DNA of 64,000 nucleotides from Deltaproteobacteria bacterium (GTDB lineage Bacteria; Desulfobacterota; Binatia; UBA9968): the NCBI GenBank assembly GCA_009692615.1, contig SHYW01000001.1:14348-78347 (forward strand), read 5' to 3'. Every line of letters starts with the position of its first letter. Position 1 is the first letter of the stretch. Under the pieces are notes generated by a model. That model was not told the origin of the DNA, searched no databases, and saw only the letters and a list, made by a program, of their open reading frames with translations. The translations under genes were made by a program, and so were the position numbers. Below, piece by piece: positions 3,517-46,470 of this stretch.

Positions 3517-4536
3517 ATGCAAGACGGTGAGCGCACTGACGAAGATTTGGGTTTTGAGCTGAGCCTTAGGCCGCGCGGCTTCGACGAATACGTCGGCCAA
3601 GAGCAGGTCAAGGAGAATCTCAAAGTCGCCATCGCCGCGGCCAAGGGGCGACACGATGTGCTCGACCATCTGCTCTTTCACGGCCCGCCGGGGTTGGGCA
3701 AAACTTCGCTGGCTTATATCATCGCCAGAGAAATGGGCGTGAATATCAAAGCGACCTCCGGTCCGGTGGTCGAACGGGCCGGCGATCTGGCGGCGCTGCT
3801 GACCAATCTCGAGGATGGCGACATTCTTTTCATCGACGAGATTCATCGCCTCAATCACGTTGTCGAAGAAGTCCTCTATCCGGCGATGGAGGACTATCAG
3901 ATCGATCTGATGATCGGCCAGGGGCCGGCGGCGCGTTCGATCAAGCTCGATTTGAAACGCTTCACTCTGATCGGCGCGACCACGCGCTCGGGGCTTTTGA
4001 CCTCGCCGCTGCGCGATCGCTTCGGCCATATTCATCGCTTGGATTTCTACGATGCCACCGCTCTGACGCGGATTCTCAAACGCTCGGCGGCGATTCTCAG
4101 CGTCGCCGAAGAGGGCGACGGCATCGCCGAAATCGCCGCGCGCTCGCGCGGCACGCCGCGCATCGCCAATCGCTTGCTGCGCCGGGTGCGCGACTACGCC
4201 CAGGTCAAAGGCCGCGGCATCATCACAAAGAACATCACCGACGAGGCGCTGCGCATGTTGGCGGTCGACCATCTCGGTTTGGATAAGATGGATACCATGC
4301 TGCTCTTGACGCTGATCGACAAGTTCGCCGGCGGCCCGGTAGGAGTTGAGACCTTGGCCGCCGCCATCGGCGAAGAGCGCGATACGATCGAAGATGTTTA
4401 CGAGCCGTTTTTGATTCAGGCCGGCTTCATCCAGCGCACGCCGCGTGGGCGCATGGCGACGGTGTTGGCCTACGAACACTTCGGCCGCCAGCAGGGCGCC
4501 GCGCCGGCGCCGAAAAAACAACCGACGCTGTTTTGA
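3517..4536 (+). CDS. ruvB: Holliday junction branch migration DNA helicase RuvB
   Basis: Walker [16 protein letters not shown], Walker [11 protein letters not shown], RuvB C-terminal winged helix. Confidence 0.95.
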
Positions 4537-4554
4537 TGATCGTGGGAGTGGGCG

Positions 4555-4776
4555 ATGGCAGGATTGGGCAGATTGCTAATTTATCTGGGCTTGGCTGTGG
4601 CCGGCGTCGGGTTGTTATTATCGTTCGCGTCAAGGCTGCCGTGGCTGCGCTGGCTCGGCCATTTGCCCGGCGATATCGCCATCGAGCGCGAGAATTTTTC
4701 TTTTTACTTTCCCTTGGTCAGTTGTATGCTTGTCAGCGCGATCATTTCGCTGATCGTTTATTGGGTCAAAAGGTAG
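4555..4776 (+). CDS. DUF2905 family small membrane protein
   Basis: 73 aa with two TM segments and the motif GHLPGDIAIERENFSFYFPL typical of DUF2905. Confidence 0.6.
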   Translation: MAGLGRLLIYLGLAVAGVGLLLSFASRLPWLRWLGHLPGDIAIERENFSFYFPLVSCMLVSAIISLIVYWVKR

Positions 4777-4802
4777 TCCCACTGTTGAGCTAGGCCGAGC
4801 CG

Positions 4803-7043
4803 ATGGAAGCTGCAAGTCCGGTAAATAACGTGGAGCAATCCCGCAAATTCGAAGAAACCAAGCGCCGTAGGCGCGAGGCCGTCGTCATTTTCGTGACCAC
4901 CGTCATCTTGGTGGCGCTGATTTATTTCGAAGTGCAGTTGCCCGAGGTCGTGCCGGAATATACCCTGGGCAGCAATATCGTTTTCTTTCTGGTGATCAAC
5001 GTCACGATCATCCTGCTTGGCTTGCTGGTGTTCTTAGTCGTACGCAATGTCGTCAAGCTGGTCTTCGAGCGTAGACGGGGCATCCTCGGTTCGAGATTGC
5101 AGAGCCGTCTGGTCATCGCGTTCGTCGGCTTGTCCTTGGTACCCTGCGTGCTGCTATTCGTCATCGCCGGCGGTCTGCTGACCCGGTCCTTCGACCGTTG
5201 GTTCGACATCAAAGTCGAGAGCGCGCTTCAAGGTTCGTTGGAAATCAGCCAGACCTACTATCAAAATTCCGCCAACAACGCGATTTTTTACTCGCGCCAG
5301 TTGAGCCGGGCGATTAGCCGCGAACGATTGTTCACCGCCGATAACGCCGCGCAGCTGAAAGAATTCATCGAACGTAAGCAGAAAGAATATAATCTTGGCA
5401 CGGTGACGCTTTATTCCCCCGACGGCCGATCCTTTGCGGTGGCGTTCAACGAGCGGGTGCCCACTGGCGTCACGGTGAAACCGGCGGGGGATTTACTGAC
5501 CCGGGCGCTGCGCGGTCTCGATGGCGCCAGCACGCAGGTGTTCGGCGACGCCGATGTGATTCGCGGCGCGGCGCCGATCTATGGCGACGAGAAACGGATT
5601 ATCGGCGCGGTGGTGGTCGACTACTTCGTGCCCAAGAGCGTCAGCAAGCGGGCGTCGCAAATCTCGCAATCCTATGAGAATTATAAATACCTGAGCTTCC
5701 TCAAGACCCCGGTGAAAAACAGCTATATCCTAACGCTGTTTTTGATGACGTTGGTGTTGGTGCTGGTGGCGACTTGGTGCGGCATTTATCTGTCGCGCGG
5801 GATCATCGTGCCGATTCAAAAACTCGCCGAGGGCACCCATGAGGTGGCCCAGGGCAATTGGGATTATCAGATCGAGTCGGGCGGCGACGACGAGCTCGGC
5901 GTGCTGATGAACTCGTTCAATCATATGACCGGCGATCTGAAGCAGATCAAGCTCGAACTGGAACGGCGCGGAAAAGCGGTGGAAATGTTGCTCGCCAACA
6001 TCGCCGCCGGGGTTGTGTCGGTGGATACGGCGGGCAAGATCACCACCTGGAATAAAGCCGCGGAAAAGGTTTTGGGTGTCGCGGCGCTAGACGCCATGGG
6101 CAAACATTATCAAGAAGTCTTCCGCGCCGAAGGTCTGGGGACGATACGCGAGATCGTCGAAACCATCGAGAACGTTTCCGGGCCGCGCAGCATCGAGCGC
6201 GAGATCAAGATTCCGTCGGCCCAACAGGTGCTCACGGCGGTGGTCAGCGCCGCGACGCTGCGCGACGACGCCGAGCTGACCCTCGGCATCATGATTTTCC
6301 TAGAGGACATTACCGAAATTAAAAAAGTCCAGCGCATGGAAGCCTGGCGCGAAGTGGCCCAGCGCATCGCCCATGAGATCAAAAACCCGCTGACGCCGAT
6401 CCAGCTTTCCGCCGAACGCCTGCGCAAGCGCTACTCCGAACTGCTCAAAGAGGACGGCGCGATTCTCGACAAGTGCACCACCACGATCATTCAACAGGTC
6501 GACGAGCTGAAAAATCTGGTCAACGAATTTTCCCAGTTCGCGCGCTTGCCATCGGCGCAGCTGTTGTCCAACGATCTCAACGAGGTTGTCAACGAAGCGT
6601 TGTTTCTGTTCAAGGAAGGGCACAACGGCATCGACTTTGAGTTTCGCGGCGGGGTGATTCCGCCGGTGGAAATCGACCGCGAGCAGATCAAGCGCGTACT
6701 GATCAATTTGCTCGACAACGCGGTGGCGGCGGTGCAGGGCGGCGGCGCGATCAAGCTGGCGACGGTGTATGATCCACGGCGTGCCGTGGTGACCCTGGAT
6801 GTCGCCGACGACGGTTGCGGCTTGGCGCCGGACAGCCGCGCGAAAATTTTCGAGCCTTACTTTTCGACTAAGCACAACGGCACGGGACTTGGGCTCACCA
6901 TCGTCAGCCAAATCATCGAGGACCATCGCGGCTACATTCGCGCCCTGCCGAATCAGCCGCGCGGCACGCGTTTTACCATCGAGTTGCCGGCGGCCAACGG
7001 CGCCGGGCCGCTCGATTCGGCGAAAAAAGTGTTACACTCATAA
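4803..7043 (+). CDS. NtrY-like sensor histidine kinase (multi-TM sensor, HAMP, PAS, HisKA, HATPase_c)
   Basis: Three N-terminal TM helices, a ~200 aa extracytoplasmic region and a fourth TM. HAMP (IVPIQKLAEGTHEVAQGNWDYQIE). PAS (LLANIAAGVVSVDTAGKITTWNKAAEKVLGV). H-box HEIKNPLTPIQLSAERLRKR. G1/G2 boxes DDGCGL...GTGLGLTIV. Confidence 0.8.
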   Translation: MEAASPVNNVEQSRKFEETKRRRREAVVIFVTTVILVALIYFEVQLPEVVPEYTLGSNIVFFLVINVTIILLGLLVFLVVRNVVKLVFERRRGILGSRLQSRLVIAFVGLSLVPCVLLFVIAGGLLTRSFDRWFDIKVESALQGSLEISQTYYQNSANNAIFYSRQLSRAISRERLFTADNAAQLKEFIERKQKEYNLGTVTLYSPDGRSFAVAFNERVPTGVTVKPAGDLLTRALRGLDGASTQVFGDADVIRGAAPIYGDEKRIIGAVVVDYFVPKSVSKRASQISQSYENYKYLSFLKTPVKNSYILTLFLMTLVLVLVATWCGIYLSRGIIVPIQKLAEGTHEVAQGNWDYQIESGGDDELGVLMNSFNHMTGDLKQIKLELERRGKAVEMLLANIAAGVVSVDTAGKITTWNKAAEKVLGVAALDAMGKHYQEVFRAEGLGTIREIVETIENVSGPRSIEREIKIPSAQQVLTAVVSAATLRDDAELTLGIMIFLEDITEIKKVQRMEAWREVAQRIAHEIKNPLTPIQLSAERLRKRYSELLKEDGAILDKCTTTIIQQVDELKNLVNEFSQFARLPSAQLLSNDLNEVVNEALFLFKEGHNGIDFEFRGGVIPPVEIDREQIKRVLINLLDNAVAAVQGGGAIKLATVYDPRRAVVTLDVADDGCGLAPDSRAKIFEPYFSTKHNGTGLGLTIVSQIIEDHRGYIRALPNQPRGTRFTIELPAANGAGPLDSAKKVLHS

Positions 7044-7061
7044 GCGGAGTCAGGAGGGCGG

Positions 7062-8342
7062 GTGCAAGAAATTCTGCTGCAAAAGACCATTTTGGTCGTC
7101 GACGACGAGGACGGCGTGCGCGAATCGGTGTGCGAAGTCTTGAGCGACGAAGGTTATCGCGTCGTCGATACCGCCGACGGCACGCGGGTGATGGAAATGA
7201 TTCGCAAAGAAAAGCCCGAGTTGGTTTTGCTCGACATTTGGATGCCGCAGGTGGACGGCATCGGACTCCTCAAGGAAATCAAAAGCCAGGAGCCCGATAT
7301 CAACGTCGTGATGGTTTCCGGCCACGGCAACATTCATACCGCGGTGACGGCGACCAAATATGGCGCCTTCGATTTCATCGAGAAGCCGGTTTCGTTGGAC
7401 GGCCTGCTGGCCACGGTGCAGCGCGCGCTGGGCGAGTTGCCCGGCGCCCGCGAGCAAAAAAAGCTCCGCGTGCACAAAGCCAAGAGCGTGAAGGCGGCGA
7501 AGAATAGTTCGCCGACGGTGAAGCAGCGGACTTTGAAAAAGAGCGTCGTACTCTCGGGCCAGGGACTCCATTCGGGGGTCAAGAGCGGTTTGATCTTGCA
7601 TCCCTTGCCGCCCAACAGCGGTATTCAATTCACCGGCATCTCCGCCGAGGTTCGGGTGCCGGCGCATTTGGATTATGTCGGCTCCACCGGTTACGCCACT
7701 TCGCTGCGCTCGAAAGGTTTCGCCGTCGGCACGGTGGAGCATTTGCTGGCGGCGTTGCACAGCTACGGCATCACCAACCTATTGATCAAAGTGCAGGGCG
7801 AAGTGCCGATCATGGACGGCTCGGCGTTGGACTTCGCCCAGTCCATCGAAGAAGCGGGCATCGATGAGGAAGACGCCGAGTTGGCACCCATCGTCATCGA
7901 GCGGCGCTATCAGGTTGACGCCGAGGGCGGCGAATCGATCGCCATCGAGCCCGCCGAAGCTTTGTCGGTGCGCTACCTCATGCGTTATCCGGCGCCGGTG
8001 GGGGAGCAGGAATACACCTATCACCATCGCGATGCGGCGTCGTTCAAAAATGAAATCGCGCCGGCGCGCACTTTCGCTTTTCTCCGCGACATCGCCAAGC
8101 TGCAAACCATGGGCTTGGCTAATGGCGGGCGGTTGAGCAATTTTATCCTCATCGACGACGAAAAAATCGTCAACACGGAACTGCGTTTTCCCGAGGAATT
8201 CGCGCGCCATAAAATATTGGACATCCTCGGCGATTTCTATTTGCTCGGCCGGCCGATTCGCGGCGCGATCACCGCGCGCATGACCGGCCACTCGGACAAC
8301 ATCGCGTTGCTGCGGCAAATCCGCGAAGCGATGAAACTCTAA
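7062..8342 (+). CDS. lpxC: Response regulator receiver domain fused to UDP-3-O-acyl-N-acetylglucosamine deacetylase (REC-LpxC fusion)
   Basis: GTG start preceded by AGGAGG. Residues 1-125 form a CheY-like REC domain (VVDDEDG, LLDIWMPQVDG, VVMVSGHG, FIEKPV). A K-rich linker follows. From ~152 a full LpxC begins (VKQRTLKK.. as in E. coli MIKQRTLK) with GLHSG, TVEHLLAAL (E78/H79), PIMDGSA, HKILDILGD (H238/K239/D242/D246) and TGHSDN (H265). Open reading frame is continuous with no stop. Confidence 0.8.
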   Translation: MQEILLQKTILVVDDEDGVRESVCEVLSDEGYRVVDTADGTRVMEMIRKEKPELVLLDIWMPQVDGIGLLKEIKSQEPDINVVMVSGHGNIHTAVTATKYGAFDFIEKPVSLDGLLATVQRALGELPGAREQKKLRVHKAKSVKAAKNSSPTVKQRTLKKSVVLSGQGLHSGVKSGLILHPLPPNSGIQFTGISAEVRVPAHLDYVGSTGYATSLRSKGFAVGTVEHLLAALHSYGITNLLIKVQGEVPIMDGSALDFAQSIEEAGIDEEDAELAPIVIERRYQVDAEGGESIAIEPAEALSVRYLMRYPAPVGEQEYTYHHRDAASFKNEIAPARTFAFLRDIAKLQTMGLANGGRLSNFILIDDEKIVNTELRFPEEFARHKILDILGDFYLLGRPIRGAITARMTGHSDNIALLRQIREAMKL

Positions 8343-8365
8343 CCCGCTAGACGAAAGACCGCACG

Positions 8366-8815
8366 ATGGACTCCAGCGCCCAGTATCAAAAACTTTTTAC
8401 CATCAACGAAGCCAACGAACTGCTGCCGATCGTGCGGCCGTTGGTGGAGCGGATCTTGGATAACATTCGGCGCTTGAAACGCGCCAGCGAAACTGTGATT
8501 CGCACCCAGCAGCTCGATCCCGAAGCGCCGGACCTGATGAAACATCTGCATGCCGACGATGAGATCGCCCGGCTTGTCGGCGAAGTGCAGCAGTGGGTTG
8601 ACACCATCAACGGTCATGGTTGCCAGTGTAAAGGCGTGGAGCAAGGATTGATCGACTTTCCCTGCGTCTACGGCGCCGAGGTGGTGTTTTTATGCTGGCA
8701 GCTGGGCGAACCGAGCGTGAGTTTTTGGCATCGCATCGAGGACGGCTTCGCGGGCCGCAAACCGCTACTCGACGGCGAGGAGGCCGAGCCCGACAGCGGC
8801 ACGTCGATTCATTAG
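8366..8815 (+). CDS. DUF2203 domain-containing protein
   Basis: FTINEANELLPIVRPLVERI ... GLIDFPCVYGAEVVFLCWQLGEPSVSFWH fits the DUF2203 family pattern. Confidence 0.55.
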   Translation: MDSSAQYQKLFTINEANELLPIVRPLVERILDNIRRLKRASETVIRTQQLDPEAPDLMKHLHADDEIARLVGEVQQWVDTINGHGCQCKGVEQGLIDFPCVYGAEVVFLCWQLGEPSVSFWHRIEDGFAGRKPLLDGEEAEPDSGTSIH

Positions 8816-8840
8816 GTCAGCCGGAGGTTTCTCGTTTTCC

Positions 8841-8947
8841 GATCATCCCCCTTTGAAAAAGGGGGACCGAGGGGGATTTGAATTCTGCGCGGGTAAAAAA
8901 CTACTGAAGAAAATCCCCCCTTCCCCCCTTTTTCAAAGGGGGGATCG
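8841..8947. repeat. Intergenic inverted-repeat element: two ~37 bp arms, each itself a CCCCCTTTGAAAAAGGGGG-type hairpin
   Basis: Left arm GATCATCCCCCTTTGAAAAAGGGGGACCGAGGGGGATTT (8841..8879). Right arm AAATCCCCCCTTCCCCCCTTTTTCAAAGGGGGGATCG (8911..8947) is its near reverse complement. Lies between DUF2203 and queG. Generates the spurious ORF 8812..9063 (PPFSKGDD / PFEKGGKGGF). Confidence 0.7.
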
Positions 8948-8962
8948 TTCAATAGTAAATCT

Positions 8963-10141
8963 ATGAAAGCGAAGCCGGCGGATGACGCCGCGGTGTTGTC
9001 CGCGCGAATTAAAACCGCGGCCCAACAGCTGGGTTTTGAATTGGTCGGCATCTCGGCGGTCAAAGCGCCGCTCCATGAGCAGTCTTTTGCGCAGTGGCTG
9101 CGCGACGGCTTCGCCGGCGAATTGGGCTACATGGCGCGCACTGAAACGTTGCGCCGCGATCCTCATGAGTTAGTTCCCTGGGCCGAGTCGGTAATTTCGG
9201 TGGGGCTCAATTATTTTACGCCGCCGGCGCGGCCCGAGTCGGTGGCCGGAACCGCCGGATGGATTTCCCGCTACGCTTGGGGCGACGACTATCACGAGCT
9301 CATGCAGGGCAAATTGCAGGCGCTGCTGCAAAGCATCGAGCAGCATGCGGGAACGCCGGTGCAGGGACGCGCCTTCGTCGACTCGGGGCCGGTGCTCGAG
9401 CGCGATCATGCTGGGGTCGCCGGTCTCGGCTGGATCGGCAAAAATACCCAACTGATTTCGCCCAAGAAGGGCTCGTGGTTTTTTCTCGGTGAGCTGTTCG
9501 TCGATCTGCCGTTAGTCTATGACCGGCCGATCCGCGACCGCTGCGGCAAGTGCGATCTCTGTCTCAAAGCCTGTCCGACCCAAGCTTTCGTCGGCCCCTA
9601 CATTCTCGACGCTCGCCGCTGCATATCTTATCTCACCATCGAGCTCAAAGGTTTCATGCCGCGCCACCTACGGCCGCTGGTCGGCAATCATATTTTTGGC
9701 TGCGACATTTGTCAGGATGTTTGCCCGTACAATGTGAAAGCCGAGGCCAGCGCCGAGAGCGCCTTCGGCCCGCGGCCGGGTCTGCATGCGCCGCAGTTGA
9801 CGCCGTTGCTATCGCTCAGCGCCGCCGAGTTTCGCGAAAAATTTCGCGGCAGCCCGATCTTGCGCGCCAAGCGGCGCGGTTTTTTGCGCAACGTCGCCGT
9901 CGCGCTCGGCAATCTCAAGAATCGCGCCGCCGTACCGGCGTTGATCGATGCCTTGAACGACGAAGAACCGTTGGTGCGCGGCCACGTTGCTTGGGCTTTG
10001 GGTGAGATCGGCGGCGATTCGGCGCTCGCTGCTTTGTCTCGCCGCCGGCAAATCGAATTGGATGAAACGGTGCTGAGTGAAATTGACGAAGCGGTGAAAT
10101 CGCTGAGTCCGTTGAGTGCGATGGCGCCGGTCGAGTCCTGA
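8963..10141 (+). CDS. queG: Epoxyqueuosine reductase QueG (4Fe-4S, cobalamin) with C-terminal HEAT repeats
   Basis: CGKCDLCLKACPTQAF and CDICQDVCPYN ferredoxin motifs, QueG N-terminal region, C-terminal HEAT-like LVRGHVAWALGEIG. Confidence 0.9.
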   Translation: MKAKPADDAAVLSARIKTAAQQLGFELVGISAVKAPLHEQSFAQWLRDGFAGELGYMARTETLRRDPHELVPWAESVISVGLNYFTPPARPESVAGTAGWISRYAWGDDYHELMQGKLQALLQSIEQHAGTPVQGRAFVDSGPVLERDHAGVAGLGWIGKNTQLISPKKGSWFFLGELFVDLPLVYDRPIRDRCGKCDLCLKACPTQAFVGPYILDARRCISYLTIELKGFMPRHLRPLVGNHIFGCDICQDVCPYNVKAEASAESAFGPRPGLHAPQLTPLLSLSAAEFREKFRGSPILRAKRRGFLRNVAVALGNLKNRAAVPALIDALNDEEPLVRGHVAWALGEIGGDSALAALSRRRQIELDETVLSEIDEAVKSLSPLSAMAPVES

Positions 10142-10222
10142 CTGGGTTTCCTTGATCTTCCCAGTTCTGGATGTTAATTCTCGCGGTGCATTTAAATAAT
10201 ATTTATTGAGGAAAATCTTTCC

Positions 10223-11011
10223 ATGTCAGATTTCGTACTGTTCGAACAAAAGGGCCATGTCGCGATTGTCACGATCAACCGGCCCGACCGCATGAATGCT
10301 CTGGGCCATGAGGTGCGAACCGGTTTGGTCGACGCGTTTCTAAAAGTTCGCCATGAGCCGTCGATCAAAGTCGCGGTGATTACCGGCGCCGGCGATAAGG
10401 CGTTTTCCGCGGGCGCCGATTTGAAAGAGCACAACGAAATTTTTCAAAAGAAATCTTATCGCGTCGGGCCCGACTATGGCGCGCTCGACGAGCCGCCGCA
10501 CTCGAGTCAACTTGCCATCGAAACCTACAAGCCGACCATCGCGGCGGTGAACGGCTACGCGCTGGCCGGCGGCTGTGAATTAACTTTGGCGTGCGATATT
10601 CGTATCGCATCGGAAAATGCCCGCTTCGGTTTGCCGGAAGCGAAGCGCGGCCGCGGCGCCAATTTCGCCACGGTGATGTTGCAGTATTTGATTCCGCGCG
10701 GCATCGCCATGGAAATGCTTTTCACCGGCGAGCAGATTTCCGCGCAGGACGCGTTGCGTTTTGGTCTGGTCAACCGGGTGGTGCCGTTGGCGGAATTATT
10801 ACCGACCGCAGTGGCGTTGGCGGATAAGATCGCCGAAAACGCGCCGGTGTCGTTGCGCCGCATTAAAGAACTGTCGGTGAAGTCGATCGGCTCGCCGTTG
10901 CTGTTCGCATTGAAAATGGCGCCGGGGCCGAGCCCCTATGAAAGCCAAGACGCGCGCGAAGGCGCCAAGGCTTTCGCTGAAAAGCGCTCTGCGAAATATA
11001 AGGGCGACTGA
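10223..11011 (+). CDS. Enoyl-CoA hydratase/isomerase (crotonase) family protein
   Basis: VAIVTINRPDRMNAL, ITGAGDKAFSAGADLKE, and the AAVNGYALAGGCELTLACDIRIA oxyanion-hole region. Confidence 0.85.
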   Translation: MSDFVLFEQKGHVAIVTINRPDRMNALGHEVRTGLVDAFLKVRHEPSIKVAVITGAGDKAFSAGADLKEHNEIFQKKSYRVGPDYGALDEPPHSSQLAIETYKPTIAAVNGYALAGGCELTLACDIRIASENARFGLPEAKRGRGANFATVMLQYLIPRGIAMEMLFTGEQISAQDALRFGLVNRVVPLAELLPTAVALADKIAENAPVSLRRIKELSVKSIGSPLLFALKMAPGPSPYESQDAREGAKAFAEKRSAKYKGD

Positions 11012-34126: not shown

Positions 34127-34344
34127 GGAGCCTCCTTAACTGCTGTGAACTTTTCTTATCTCAAGCTGGTGGCGATGGGAAGCTTTGGCAAGCGTTTTGA
34201 CCCGCGTCGCGGCAAATCAAGAGACATCGCTGAAATAAAATGTTATCCTTACGTCTAATCGATAACCACCCCGGCCAAGGTGTCGGCAATAATGAAAGGG
34301 ATAACCTGGAGTACCAGCTAGAGCTTATGAATCTTAAAGCAGAA

Positions 34345-35487
34345 ATGAATTCGATTAAATTTCTTCAATGGCTTCGTTTGAGTGTCGTAGTCGGGTTGCT
34401 GCTGGCCGGTCGGGACAGCCAAGCGGCGGGCACAGAGCCACAAGAGTTTAACCGGCGTGCCACGGCCACGGCGCAGTTGCTGGCCGGCATCATGCCCAAT
34501 CCTCCTGAGCCTGCGTTCAATCGCTTTACCGAACTCGATGCTTGGAAAGAGCATCAAAAATGGATGACCAGTCAATGGGCTTTGGTGCGCGGCCGGCTCA
34601 ATACCATGGAAACGTGGCGCGACCACGAAGTGAAAGTCACCGGCGCTGCGAAAAAGACCATGCTCTACCCGTTCAGCGGCCCGGACTTTATCAATGCCTA
34701 TGCGCTGTTTCCCGATCACGCGCGCTATGTGTTTTTCAGTTTGGAGCGGCCCGGCGCGCTGCCCGACATGGAATCGGTAACCACGGTGCAGTTTATTAAA
34801 CTACTAACCGACGTGCGCGGCGCCTTTCGCGACATCTTCGAGCGTAATTATTTTATTACCTCCTACATGACCAAGCAGCTGACCACGCCGTGGGTGCGCG
34901 GCACGGTGCCGGTGATGGCGACCATGATGGCGTTGATGAACCGGCGCATCGTGCGCATCGAACCCATCGATTTATTTCCCGAGTTGAACCGTGCCTACGA
35001 CACTCCAGACGCCAAGCGGCCGCGCTTGTTGCTGCGCGGCGTGCGCGTCGACTTCGCCAACCCGGCCGCGGCCGGAATTCAGCAGCTTTATTATTTTTCC
35101 TTGGACGCCACGGATAAAGCGCTCGATTATTATCCCGAGTTTCTCAATTGGGTCGGCCAGTACAAACCGGCCACCGCGCTGATCAAGTCGGCATCCTACC
35201 TGTTACATGATGGCCAGTTCGCCAAGACTCGGGCGACGATTTTGGAATCAGCCGATTTAGTCGTGCAGGACGATACCGGGATACCTTACCGCTTTTTGAA
35301 TCAAGCGCCCTGGCATGTGAAGTTGTTCGGCAGGTACAGCAAGCCGATTCGGCCGATGGAATACGCCTATCAAAAAGATCTCGAAAGCGCGTTCAAGGCC
35401 GCTCCCGACCAAGCCGACTTGCCGTTCCCGTTCGGCTATCATTGGCGCAGCAAACAATCGGCTTTGATGTTGGCCCATCGTCAGTAA
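34345..35487 (+). CDS. Hypothetical secreted protein (signal peptide, ~380 aa, no recognised domain)
   Basis: N-terminal MNSIKFLQWLRLSVVVGLLLAG signal. No family recognised from sequence. The ORF-track start at 34240 is probably upstream of the true start. Confidence 0.5.
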   Translation: MNSIKFLQWLRLSVVVGLLLAGRDSQAAGTEPQEFNRRATATAQLLAGIMPNPPEPAFNRFTELDAWKEHQKWMTSQWALVRGRLNTMETWRDHEVKVTGAAKKTMLYPFSGPDFINAYALFPDHARYVFFSLERPGALPDMESVTTVQFIKLLTDVRGAFRDIFERNYFITSYMTKQLTTPWVRGTVPVMATMMALMNRRIVRIEPIDLFPELNRAYDTPDAKRPRLLLRGVRVDFANPAAAGIQQLYYFSLDATDKALDYYPEFLNWVGQYKPATALIKSASYLLHDGQFAKTRATILESADLVVQDDTGIPYRFLNQAPWHVKLFGRYSKPIRPMEYAYQKDLESAFKAAPDQADLPFPFGYHWRSKQSALMLAHRQ

Positions 35488-44618: not shown

Positions 44619-45647
44619 TCAGTTTTGTTTGCGAAACAGCAGGACGGAAAACCATTGGTTGGGATCGGTGAAGTGGGCCACCGGCGCTAGGCCGAAGAAA
44701 CCCAACTGTTCTTGCAAGCGGTTGGGATCGAACTTGCGGCTGATCTCGACGAGGATATTTTCGTTTTCCTGCCATTCGAAATTCGCACCGCTATCGGCGA
44801 AGCGAATTCGTTGGCGGGCGGTGGCGACACCGTGCATTTCAATTTGCCGCCACTCGGGATTGAACCACGAGTCGTAGCGCATTCGTTCGACATCGAAGTT
44901 ACCGGCCATGCGCCGGTTGATGTTTTGAAAGACGTTTAAGATAAACTTGGCGGTGATGCCTCGGCTGTCGTTGTAGGCGGCTTCCAGGAGTTTCGGATCT
45001 TTGACGCGATCGGCGCCGAGCAGCAAATAATCGTTGGGCCCCATGGCCGCCGACAGGGCGCGAAAAAAGCGCGGGAAGTCGGTGAGATTGAAGTTGCCGA
45101 TGGTGCTGCCGAGAAAGACGAATAGGGTCGGCAGGTTTTTATCGATGGCGCCGAAGCCTGCTTCGTAGCGTGAGTGAATGCCGTGAAATTCGATTTGCGG
45201 AAAATCTTTTTGCACAGCGCTTTGCGATGCGAGCAGACCGGCGGCGCTGACATCGATGGGGGCAAAGATGCAATGGCGCCGTTGCGCCAGTTGCTCGGTG
45301 AGCAAATGGACGGTTTTCTTGCTGTAGCCGGCGCCGAGCTCGACGATGCATTCAACCGGCGCGCTGGCGATGATGTCTTTGGCGCGGGCTTCGAGGATGC
45401 TATTCTCCGTGCGGGTCAGATAATATTCCGGTAACTCGCAGATCTCTTCGAACAGTTCCGAGCCGGTGTCGTCATAAAGATGATAAGCTTCGAGCCAGCG
45501 CGGCTGATCCCAAAGGGTCGTCAAGATCGACATCGTCGGTGCGCCGTCGAGATCGGCGCCGGCTAACGACCAGATGCCGGGATGGTGCGAAAGCCAATGG
45601 AGTCGTTGCTCGGTGGCGAAAATACGTGGCGGTGTCGGTTGTTTCAT
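44619..45647 (-). CDS. egtD: L-histidine N-alpha-methyltransferase EgtD family (Methyltransf_33)
   Basis: LPEYYLTRTENSILEA, ECIVELGAGYSKKTVHLL (SAM site), FVFLGSTIGNF, YLLLGADRVKD, VEISRKF all match EgtD blocks. Likely start MKQPTPPRIF. Confidence 0.75.
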   Translation of the reverse strand: MKQPTPPRIFATEQRLHWLSHHPGIWSLAGADLDGAPTMSILTTLWDQPRWLEAYHLYDDTGSELFEEICELPEYYLTRTENSILEARAKDIIASAPVECIVELGAGYSKKTVHLLTEQLAQRRHCIFAPIDVSAAGLLASQSAVQKDFPQIEFHGIHSRYEAGFGAIDKNLPTLFVFLGSTIGNFNLTDFPRFFRALSAAMGPNDYLLLGADRVKDPKLLEAAYNDSRGITAKFILNVFQNINRRMAGNFDVERMRYDSWFNPEWRQIEMHGVATARQRIRFADSGANFEWQENENILVEISRKFDPNRLQEQLGFFGLAPVAHFTDPNQWFSVLLFRKQN

Positions 45648-45702
45648 GGACGGGGAGACTATAAAAGAAATTGACCAACGATGCGACCCCGAGCGAGCTT
45701 CA

Positions 45703-46470
45703 ATGTCTAATCCATCGAGCACGATAAAATTTCACGACGTCAATTTCGTACTGCCCGGCGGTAAGAAGCTGCTGGCCAATCTCAATCTCGACGTCGGCGC
45801 CGGCGAGACCTTGGTGTTACTCGGCCGTAGCGGCTCGGGCAAGACCACGACGATGAAACTGATCAATCGGTTGATCGATCCGACCTCGGGACGGCTGGAA
45901 GTTGAAGGCAAAGCGACAGTCGACTGGGATCCGATCCAACTGCGCCGGCGCATCGGCTACGTGATCCAAGAGATCGGTTTGTTTCCCCATCTGACCATCG
46001 AACAGAATATCGGCGTGGTGCCACGCTTGGAAGGCTGGGCCGCTGAACGCATTCAACTGCGTGCGCGCGAACTTTTAAATCTAGTTGGCCTAAACGCTGA
46101 CAGTTTTGCCGGCCGCTTTCCCAGGGAACTATCCGGCGGCCAGCGCCAACGAGTCGGCGTGGCGCGGGCGCTGGCCGCCGATCCGCCGGTGATTTTGCTC
46201 GACGAACCGTTCGGCGCCCTCGATCCAATCACCCGCCGCGAGATTCAACGGGAGTTCAAAAATCTCCAGCAGGAACTCGGCAAGACCATGGTTTTCGTCA
46301 CCCATGATATCGCCGAAGCGTTCGTGCTGGCCAATCGCATCGCCCTGCTCAAGGACGGCGAAATGATTTTACTTGGGCCGCCCGCCGAGTTGCTCGAATC
46401 GAACCATCCCGAGGCGCGCGCCTTCGCCGAGTGCTTTCACGACGGCCAGAATATAGCGAGGCCGGCGTGA
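45703..46470 (+). CDS. Glycine betaine/quaternary-amine type ABC transporter ATP-binding protein (OpuCA/EgtV-like, no CBS domain)
   Basis: Walker A GRSGSGKTT, signature LSGGQRQRVGVARAL, Walker B LLDEPFGALD. Divergent from egtD. Confidence 0.85.
   Translation: MSNPSSTIKFHDVNFVLPGGKKLLANLNLDVGAGETLVLLGRSGSGKTTTMKLINRLIDPTSGRLEVEGKATVDWDPIQLRRRIGYVIQEIGLFPHLTIEQNIGVVPRLEGWAAERIQLRARELLNLVGLNADSFAGRFPRELSGGQRQRVGVARALAADPPVILLDEPFGALDPITRREIQREFKNLQQELGKTMVFVTHDIAEAFVLANRIALLKDGEMILLGPPAELLESNHPEARAFAECFHDGQNIARPA

Follow-up and report, generated by a model that had tools for sequence, protein, structure and literature searches.

The fusion gene and its product

The window analysed here is a 64,000-nucleotide (nt) stretch of contig SHYW01000001.1 (assembly GCA_009692615.1), from an uncultured deltaproteobacterium placed in the Binatia. 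On its forward strand lies the gene that is the subject of this work, in which a phospho-receiver (REC) domain is joined to LpxC, the deacetylase of lipid A synthesis, directly behind the gene of an NtrY-type sensor histidine kinase (Table 1). LpxC is the flux-controlling enzyme of lipopolysaccharide (LPS) synthesis and a major antibiotic target, and its regulation is an active question. A first-pass annotation, made from the letters alone, had described REC and LpxC as parts of one protein, and the two indeed occupy a single open reading frame (ORF): there is no stop codon or frameshift between the halves, and Pfam matches both. The stop codon of the kinase gene is at positions 7041-7043, leaving 18 nt before the start of the fusion gene, and this spacing suggests that the two genes are co-transcribed. 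A promoter and terminator scan of positions 4300-10400 returned counts no higher than those obtained in shuffled sequence. P0001, a database protein identical to the window fusion, sits on a 109,441-bp contig of a metagenome-assembled genome (MAG) at NCBI. Residues are numbered throughout with the GTG start codon as residue 1.

Table 1. The fusion locus, feature by feature (positions in the window; aa, amino acids).
Feature	Position	Strand	Remarks
REC-LpxC fusion gene	7062..8342	+	426 codons plus stop, one open frame
Shine-Dalgarno AGGAGG	7052..7057	+	4 nt before the fusion GTG start at 7062
NtrX-type receiver domain (aa 9-122)	7086..7427	+	D14, D15, D58, S86, K108
Tether (aa 123-152)	7428..7517	+	disordered, variable; Lys-rich in the window protein
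Full LpxC deacetylase domain (aa 153-426)	7518..8339	+	Pfam, TIGR00325, structure alignment
NtrY-type sensor histidine kinase, 746 aa	4803..7043	+	NtrY_N, HAMP, PAS, HisKA, HATPase_c
DUF2203 gene	8366..8815	+	23 nt downstream of fusion; PF09969, E 2e-34
DUF2905 small membrane protein	4555..4776	+	between ruvB and kinase; PF11146, E 7e-23

By each sequence and fold criterion examined, the N-terminal half of the protein is a response-regulator receiver. Response_reg (PF00072) is matched at aa 10-119 with an E-value of 1.1e-30 (106.4 bits), and AlphaFold predicts five alternating strand-helix units, from E9-13 through H112-122, at a predicted local distance difference test score (pLDDT) of 83-97. 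The quintet of residues expected of a phosphorylatable receiver is complete, with the acidic pair at D14/D15 (13/14 in the first count), the phospho-acceptor at D58, and S86 and K108 in place. All five are invariant in an alignment of 116 short-form (REC-LpxC) proteins that are 37-91% identical to the window protein. Among the NCBIfam regulator models NtrX scores best (NF051870, 144.7 bits against a cutoff of 600), with aa 9-158 aligning to profile positions 3-154, and the top matches to REC in the Protein Data Bank (PDB) are the Brucella NtrX structures 4d6x and 5m7n. On these matches the protein is NtrX-derived in its REC part only; having neither AAA+ nor HTH_8, it does not itself count as an NtrX. 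The earlier remark that NtrX is missing from the locus thus stands for these two domains, but the receiver that remains is of NtrX type, and relatives described below have a whole NtrX-like regulator fused to LpxC.

The C-terminal half, which starts with VKQRTLKK at V153, is an LpxC by all the sequence and fold criteria examined. PF03331 spans aa 155-420 (E 1.6e-81, 274.2 bits, cutoff 27) and is covered from profile position 1 to 266 of 268, while the lpxC equivalog model TIGR00325 of NCBIfam, for which 187.25 bits is the trusted cutoff, gives 246.6. The solved LpxC structures of Pseudomonas aeruginosa, Escherichia coli and Aquifex align to this half at E-values of about 1e-46 to 1e-50. Identity to the P. 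aeruginosa and E. coli enzymes is 36-39%, and the motifs TVEHLL, ARTF, HKILDxxGD and GH stand in register with the solved P. aeruginosa LpxC, residue for residue. The zinc ligands (H79, H238 and D242 in E. coli) and the catalytic and substrate residues (E78, H265, T191, K239, D246 and H19) are all intact, in agreement with the first-pass annotation. E78/H79 corresponds to E226/H227 of the window protein, T191 to T337, H238/K239/D242/D246 to H383/K384/D387/D391, H265 to H410 and H19 to H170; E226, H227, T337, H383, K384, D387, D391 and H410 are invariant in the 116 short-form homologues. The AlphaFold model of the domain (pLDDT about 90-98) has the two-domain beta-alpha-alpha-beta fold and superposes on Aquifex LpxC with a template modelling (TM) score of 0.96-0.97 and a root-mean-square deviation of 1.1-1.2 A over ~273 columns (Foldseek). 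The C-terminal tail of E. coli LpxC, some 24 aa long, is missing from the window protein, the PDB alignment stopping at residue 275 of the 305 in the LpxC chain, after which six further query residues follow. Translation of LpxC alone from an internal GTG at 7518 was considered and is unlikely, because no Shine-Dalgarno sequence precedes this codon and the residue at the ancestral LpxC Met position differs among relatives.

The two halves are joined by a tether for which AlphaFold gives a pLDDT below 50 at aa 127-148 of the window protein. Mean column identity across the family is 0.78 in REC and 0.77 in LpxC against 0.31 in the tether, which ranges in length from 24 to 95 aa and is rich in A, G, S, R and P. 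The lysine-rich linker pointed out at first is therefore a property of the window protein and not of the family: only 68% of the linkers carry a positive net charge (median +2, range -6 to +9), and a conserved basic tail for membrane or DNA binding was rejected on that count. AlphaFold assigns a predicted TM score (pTM) of 0.85 to the window protein and of 0.83 to P0162, a 39%-identical orphan. As these values are reached although no more than 64% of the chain is LpxC and the tether is disordered, they suggest that REC and LpxC may be packed in a defined contact.

The sensor kinase

The sequence of the kinase encoded upstream contains three N-terminal transmembrane segments, an extracytoplasmic region of ~180 aa and a fourth transmembrane segment, followed by HAMP-PAS-HisKA-HATPase_c. 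All five of its domains exceed the Pfam gathering cutoffs, NtrY_N with 32.5 bits against 23.2, and the NtrY-type architecture ascribed to it at first reading was in this way confirmed. No NtrY equivalog is found among its NCBIfam matches, the best of which (the LIC_11548 family and AtoS) lie far under their cutoffs, and we call the kinase NtrY-like by architecture only. The H-box AHEIKNPL is kept together with the N, G1, F and G2 boxes in 62-66 homologous loci, and a homologue of the kinase stands immediately upstream of the fusion in Binatia-type as well as long-form loci.

REC-LpxC also occurs as an orphan. One clade of ~475-aa proteins (L039-L046, e.g., L040:9890-11329) has no adjacent kinase; at L040, the one locus scanned, the gene is found between divergent nusA and rho, and the longer linker of the clade has 'RRLVRENRELRSRI', which looks like the remnant of an NtrC-type REC-AAA+ linker. 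Two deep-branching REC-LpxC proteins, P0162 (L081:8001-9260) and P0200 (L082:8001-9269), likewise have no kinase beside them. The 1.8-Mb contig of P0162 also encodes spirochaete-type markers (TP0873_N, FliD), and Spirochaetota is the label given to the relatives of this protein.

Spread and conservation of the fusion

In a search of 5.8 billion proteins, the best 120 matches to the window protein (75-100% identical) carry PF00072 together with PF03331 without exception (120/120). Their sources are assemblies of NCBI, ENA, JGI and Logan, and their titles are plainly "UDP-3-O-acyl-GlcNAc deacetylase". Contigs from one genome per species yielded 79 loci, of which 61 belong to the short REC-LpxC lineage, comprising 51 ORFs of 415-485 aa, of which one is truncated where its contig stops, and 10 further contig-end or frameshift cases. 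A further 16 represent the long-form lineage described below (13 complete ORFs) and one is undetermined; an ordinary stand-alone LpxC is encoded at one locus only, L079 of a betaproteobacterium. Pairwise distances of REC and LpxC correlate with r = 0.89, a value reached in 0/300 permutations, and this co-divergence, together with the equal conservation of the two halves, shows that the fusion is old and has been passed on as one unit. Chance association is excluded by the strong E-values and by the presence of the same ORF in more than 100 independent assemblies. The architecture is accordingly common in metagenomes, and the link between REC and LpxC is invisible in genome annotation because the proteins are labelled as plain LpxC or as NtrX; we found no study of it.

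MAGs with the fusion are labelled Binatia, Deltaproteobacteria/Thermodesulfobacteriota, Nitrospinota, Spirochaetota and Thermoanaerobaculia. The hosts are without exception uncultured MAGs, and several of the taxon labels are clearly unreliable. Four loci with full Binatia-type synteny (L019, L031, L036 and L004) are labelled Verrucomicrobiia, Eisenbacteria, Mycobacterium sp. or Syntrophobacter sp., and are probably mis-binned or mislabelled.

The LpxC half alone was searched against 1.84 billion cluster representatives, and the best 150 clusters at 50% identity were sorted by architecture. Among them are 28 REC-LpxC, 15 REC-AAA-LpxC and one REC-HTH-LpxC; 13 have other N-terminal extensions, and ordinary stand-alone LpxC appears at 48% identity or less only. 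Four of the proteins with other extensions (P0124, P0134, P0140 and P0143) group with the long forms in the tree, as would fit long forms truncated at the 5' end. In a neighbour-joining tree the REC-bearing LpxCs make up one clade, apart from every sampled stand-alone LpxC and LpxC-FabZ, with P0210 as the one genuine stand-alone exception within it, in a basal position. The nearest named stand-alone LpxCs are from Nitrospirota and NC10, not from Binatia.

P0210 and the betaproteobacterial L079 are the only genuine stand-alone genes among the close relatives. The other candidates for unfused copies were rejected: P0142, P0169 and P0174 come from contigs of 0.9-1.3 kb, P0153 (L080) has the RuvA-RuvB-DUF2905-kinase context of the fusion on a contig full of frameshifts, and at L034, L065, L071, L075, L076 and L077 the pieces are collinear and lie in different reading frames. 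Assemblies with many frameshifts, which seem to derive from long reads, split the fusion and its neighbours, leaving false stand-alone LpxC entries in protein clusters.

Long and intermediate forms

The long form consists of REC, an AAA+ domain without GAFTGA, AAA_lid, HTH_8 and LpxC in a single ORF of 680-769 aa, placed straight after a homologous NtrY-like kinase (L056-L074, e.g., L063 8630..10825, 731 aa; proteins P0122, P0139 and P0150). The MAGs are labelled Thermodesulfobacteriota, Deltaproteobacteria or Nitrospinota. Loci with long-form ORFs of 724-769 aa had first looked like unfused relatives. Pfam identifies Response_reg, Sigma54_activat, AAA_lid_14 and LpxC in the L063 ORF, and HTH_8 as well in other members (P0139). 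NtrX is the best NCBIfam regulator model in 3/3 long forms scanned, matched over nearly the whole profile at 247-335 bits, which is under the 600-bit equivalog cutoff. IMG names the long forms "NtrX" and NCBI names them LpxC. Regular expressions for GAFTGA and Walker B gave 0 matches in 28 full long forms and 2 intermediates, and Walker A was present in about two thirds of the long forms and intermediates. NtrX is characterised by the same degenerate state, without GAFTGA. The long form was therefore rejected as a true sigma-54 activator, GAFTGA and Walker B being missing.

Intermediates of the form REC-HTH_8-LpxC, in which AAA+ is lost and the DNA-binding domain kept, are represented by P0127 (505 aa) and P0137 (491 aa, L087:5913-7388); the latter has the kinase directly upstream and a DUF4390 gene just 5' of the kinase. 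Long and short forms are interleaved within the REC-fused clade, and three reduced proteins are nearer to a long form than to other short forms. P0137 shares 82% identity in LpxC and 75% in REC with the long form P0146, P0148 shares 74% and 66% with P0132, and P0127 shares 69% and 62% with P0125, whereas none of the three exceeds 61% identity with another short form. By these identities, the AAA+/HTH core has been lost at least three separate times. The window protein is in turn most likely a trimmed NtrX-LpxC. Since it shares the NtrX-type receiver, the domain order and the kinase partner with the long forms, the nearest of which is 62% (LpxC) and 53% (REC) identical to the Binatia branch, we infer descent of this branch from a long form, as a matter of parsimony and not of proof.

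Neighbouring genes

Binatia-type loci have the gene order yebC-ruvC-ruvA-ruvB-DUF2905-kinase-[REC-LpxC]-DUF2203-queG. Over 33 loci, LpxC, REC and the kinase diverge in step with RuvB and YebC (r = 0.67-0.88), and this indicates that the locus is inherited vertically, as a core gene. DUF2203 follows the fusion in most of the closer Binatia-type loci where the contig reaches that far (L001-L035, L047, L052, L061, L076-L078) and is absent from more distant short-form loci and from long-form loci, so that its part in the system is uncertain. Most Binatia-type loci have DUF2905, as do L054, L055 and L080, but L045, L049 and L053 are without it, which makes it a frequent but not obligatory neighbour; DUF2203 and DUF2905 alike may be unconnected to the system. 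No protease or adaptor gene is conserved beside the fusion in the neighbourhoods of the recovered loci.

Elsewhere in the 64-kb window there are no lpx genes and no second receiver, and the remaining genes are those of transport and catabolism. Three others are recorded here for their own sake. The gene at 8963-10141 (+) encodes an epoxyqueuosine reductase QueG with a HEAT-repeat extension at its C-terminus. The gene at 44619-45722 (-) matches PF10017 (E 1e-91), and its product, an EgtD-like histidine-specific SAM methyltransferase, is a hint that ergothioneine or hercynine is made. A 415-aa ORF at 34240-35487 (+) has no Pfam match at E <= 1e-5.

Proposed mechanism and its alternatives

The continuous frame, the invariant residues, the adjacent conserved kinase and the co-divergence of the parts support what the first-pass annotation had made of the locus, namely a two-component pair with an intact LpxC as its output. 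On this reading, the NtrY-type membrane kinase (4803..7043) would sense a signal, possibly of the envelope or of redox state by analogy with NtrY, and would determine whether D58 of the NtrX-derived receiver is phosphorylated. By way of a putative contact between the domains, held together by the flexible tether, the receiver would then change the deacetylase activity of the attached LpxC, in a manner likened to that of the CheB receiver acting on its esterase domain; defined packing of the two domains would favour such a gate on catalysis. Lipid A synthesis could in this way be tuned after translation, without proteolysis of the FtsH/LapB type. The ancestor would have been an NtrX-like regulator (REC-AAA+-HTH_8) fused to LpxC, whose AAA+/HTH core was deleted later in the window lineage and independently in others. 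Phosphotransfer, and an effect on catalysis in one direction or the other, are what we infer from this arrangement, and to a working pathway in which the kinase sets D58 phosphorylation and the receiver alters the activity of its LpxC we assign a probability of roughly 0.55. The arrangement suggests that outer-membrane lipid synthesis can be wired directly to a two-component signal. We propose more tentatively, at somewhat less than even odds, that in Binatia and several uncultured lineages the sole LpxC is itself a response regulator switched by phosphotransfer.

Several observations weigh against the proposed pathway. The pTM values do not place a REC contact relative to the LpxC active site, and a tether so variable in length and sequence fits a passive leash equally with a gate. 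In several lineages (L039-L046, P0162 and P0200) the fusion has no adjoining kinase. As to the origin of the window protein, the neighbour-joining tree is without support values, only short forms stand on its deepest branches, among them P0200 and the Spirochaetota-type P0162, and the nearest long form is no closer to the Binatia branch than the identities given above.

The same architecture could also serve a system in which phosphorylation controls not the rate of LpxC but its proteolytic stability (the receiver acting as degron or adaptor, as in RssB or CpdR), its dimerisation or its recruitment to the membrane. NtrC-family receivers often signal by dimer rearrangement, and the disordered and variable tether is in line with an output of this kind. 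The LpxC controls reviewed so far, apart from MurA and the transcriptional ones, act on stability or localisation (PMC12444477). The loss of the E. coli C-terminal tail from the window protein can be counted in favour as well, and it means that another handle would be needed for stability control. However, the pTM values of two distant members (0.83-0.85) suggest that the two domains are in fixed contact within the molecule, and the locus has no conserved protease or adaptor gene at its side. We regard control of stability or localisation as the main rival, plausible but clearly less probable than a gate on catalysis.

Less probable again is a role of the fusion as an accessory LpxC, paralogous to a housekeeping lpxC elsewhere in the genome and providing a conditional boost of lipid A or acting on a related substrate. 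The fused LpxCs do form their own clade apart from the stand-alone enzymes, this clade spans several phyla in a way that hints at lateral spread, and the phyla it spans also have canonical LpxCs in cultured members. Nevertheless, tblastn detects no second lpxC in the window, none lies within 10 kb on either side in the 79 loci, and no assembly gave two of these loci. The window protein scores above the TIGR00325 equivalog cutoff, its 36-39% identity is ordinary for cross-phylum orthologues, and all substrate and catalytic residues are invariant. Furthermore, an origin of the fused gene as a second copy sits poorly with nearest named stand-alone LpxCs that are from Nitrospirota and NC10 and not from Binatia, and with a locus that is syntenic and vertically inherited.

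We give even less weight to a fusion without regulatory meaning, in which loss of a stop codon or a deletion joined a regulator gene to the lpxC next to it, LpxC works constitutively and the receiver is a leftover or a phosphate sink. Neighbours in an operon often become fused, conservation of the tether is poor, and some lineages are without an adjacent kinase. Against this, decay would be expected of a leftover domain, but REC is conserved like LpxC, with its five phospho-residues invariant down to 37% identity, the kinase is kept with intact motifs, and REC was retained at each loss of the AAA+/HTH core. A vestigial receiver is unlikely, since its residues are invariant and it has repeatedly been retained while AAA+/HTH was lost. 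Finally, an artefact of assembly, frameshift or gene calling is refuted by recurrence, because frameshifts do occur in some long-read assemblies of the locus but split the gene and do not join it, and the continuous ORF recurs in over 100 independent clusters (NCBI, ENA, JGI and Logan) and as 51 short-form and 13 complete long-form ORFs in species-representative genomes.

Relation to known systems

In the full-text-searchable literature, outside which lie subscription-only papers such as response-regulator censuses, we found no description of a REC-LpxC or NtrX-LpxC fusion, and within this scope the early impression of an architecture so far uncharacterised was borne out. A 2025 review lists FtsH/LapB, MurA, Lon and the transcriptional systems NtrYX and ChvGI, and has neither "receiver" nor "fusion" in its text (PMC12444477). 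According to the same source, Ght controls the localisation of LpxC in Neisseria meningitidis, Lon possibly controls its stability, and NtrYX represses lpxC in Caulobacter crescentus (PMC12444477). In Rhodobacter sphaeroides, loss of NtrYX raised lpxC mRNA 8.8-fold and increased LPS, and the study judged the control of lpxC by NtrX to be indirect (PMC7240162). For DVU2934 of Desulfovibrio vulgaris, a sigma-54-type (NtrC-class) response regulator, lpxC is the only mapped target, and in Syntrophobacter fumaroxidans lpxC adjoins the orthologous regulator operon (PMC3333781). LpxC genes are enriched in the predicted sigma-54 regulons of Myxococcia (PMC12316311).

A large and conserved family in which LpxC is covalently joined to a phospho-receiver, with an NtrY-type kinase mostly beside it, would represent a new way of regulating the enzyme, and the fusion makes the functional association of NtrYX with lpxC a physical one. 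The series from NtrX-LpxC over REC-HTH-LpxC to REC-LpxC can be read as a "Rosetta stone" that connects the little-understood NtrYX system to lipid A well beyond the alphaproteobacteria, and it points to a transcription-factor lineage converted more than once into an enzyme-output regulator. If the fused protein is indeed the sole LpxC and is switched, it would represent a mode of LPS control without described precedent, and the alphaproteobacterial link between NtrYX and lpxC would reflect an old and general role of NtrYX in outer-membrane homeostasis.

Enzyme-output response regulators are already known, and what is new is LpxC as the output. The fusion resembles CheB, PleD and WspR (REC-GGDEF) and RpfG (REC-HD-GYP) in having an N-terminal receiver, a flexible linker, a C-terminal enzyme and a cognate kinase, but its output is a zinc amidase of the essential lipid A pathway and not an enzyme of signalling or adaptation. 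Unlike that of CheB, its receiver is of the NtrC/NtrX lineage, and the inhibitory interface known for CheB, in which the receiver without its phosphate packs on the catalytic domain, is hypothetical here. With NtrY/NtrX of Brucella, Rhodobacter and Caulobacter it shares the kinase architecture, a receiver best matched by NtrX and long forms without GAFTGA, whereas AAA+ and HTH_8 are gone from the window protein, LpxC is covalently attached, and scores of 145-335 bits stand against the NtrX cutoff of 600. NtrX control of lpxC in alphaproteobacteria is, moreover, transcriptional.

Among the known controls of LpxC, none acts by His-Asp phosphotransfer or through a domain fused to LpxC. FtsH, LapB (YciM) and YejM (proteolysis in E. 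coli), MurA (activation in P. aeruginosa) and possibly Lon (alphaproteobacteria) are separate partner proteins, and proteolysis in E. coli uses the C-terminal degron that the window protein is missing. The only other widespread LpxC fusion in the sample, LpxC-FabZ (NF009667, 427-459 aa), differs in that its partner is a metabolic enzyme added as a C-terminal extension, and it falls among the stand-alone LpxCs in the tree. Compared by class and target, DVU2934 is a counterpart from a 'deltaproteobacterial' lineage, an NtrC-class two-component regulator dedicated to lpxC; there, however, regulator and enzyme are encoded by separate genes and control is transcriptional, whereas in the fusion described here the receiver and LpxC are one protein.

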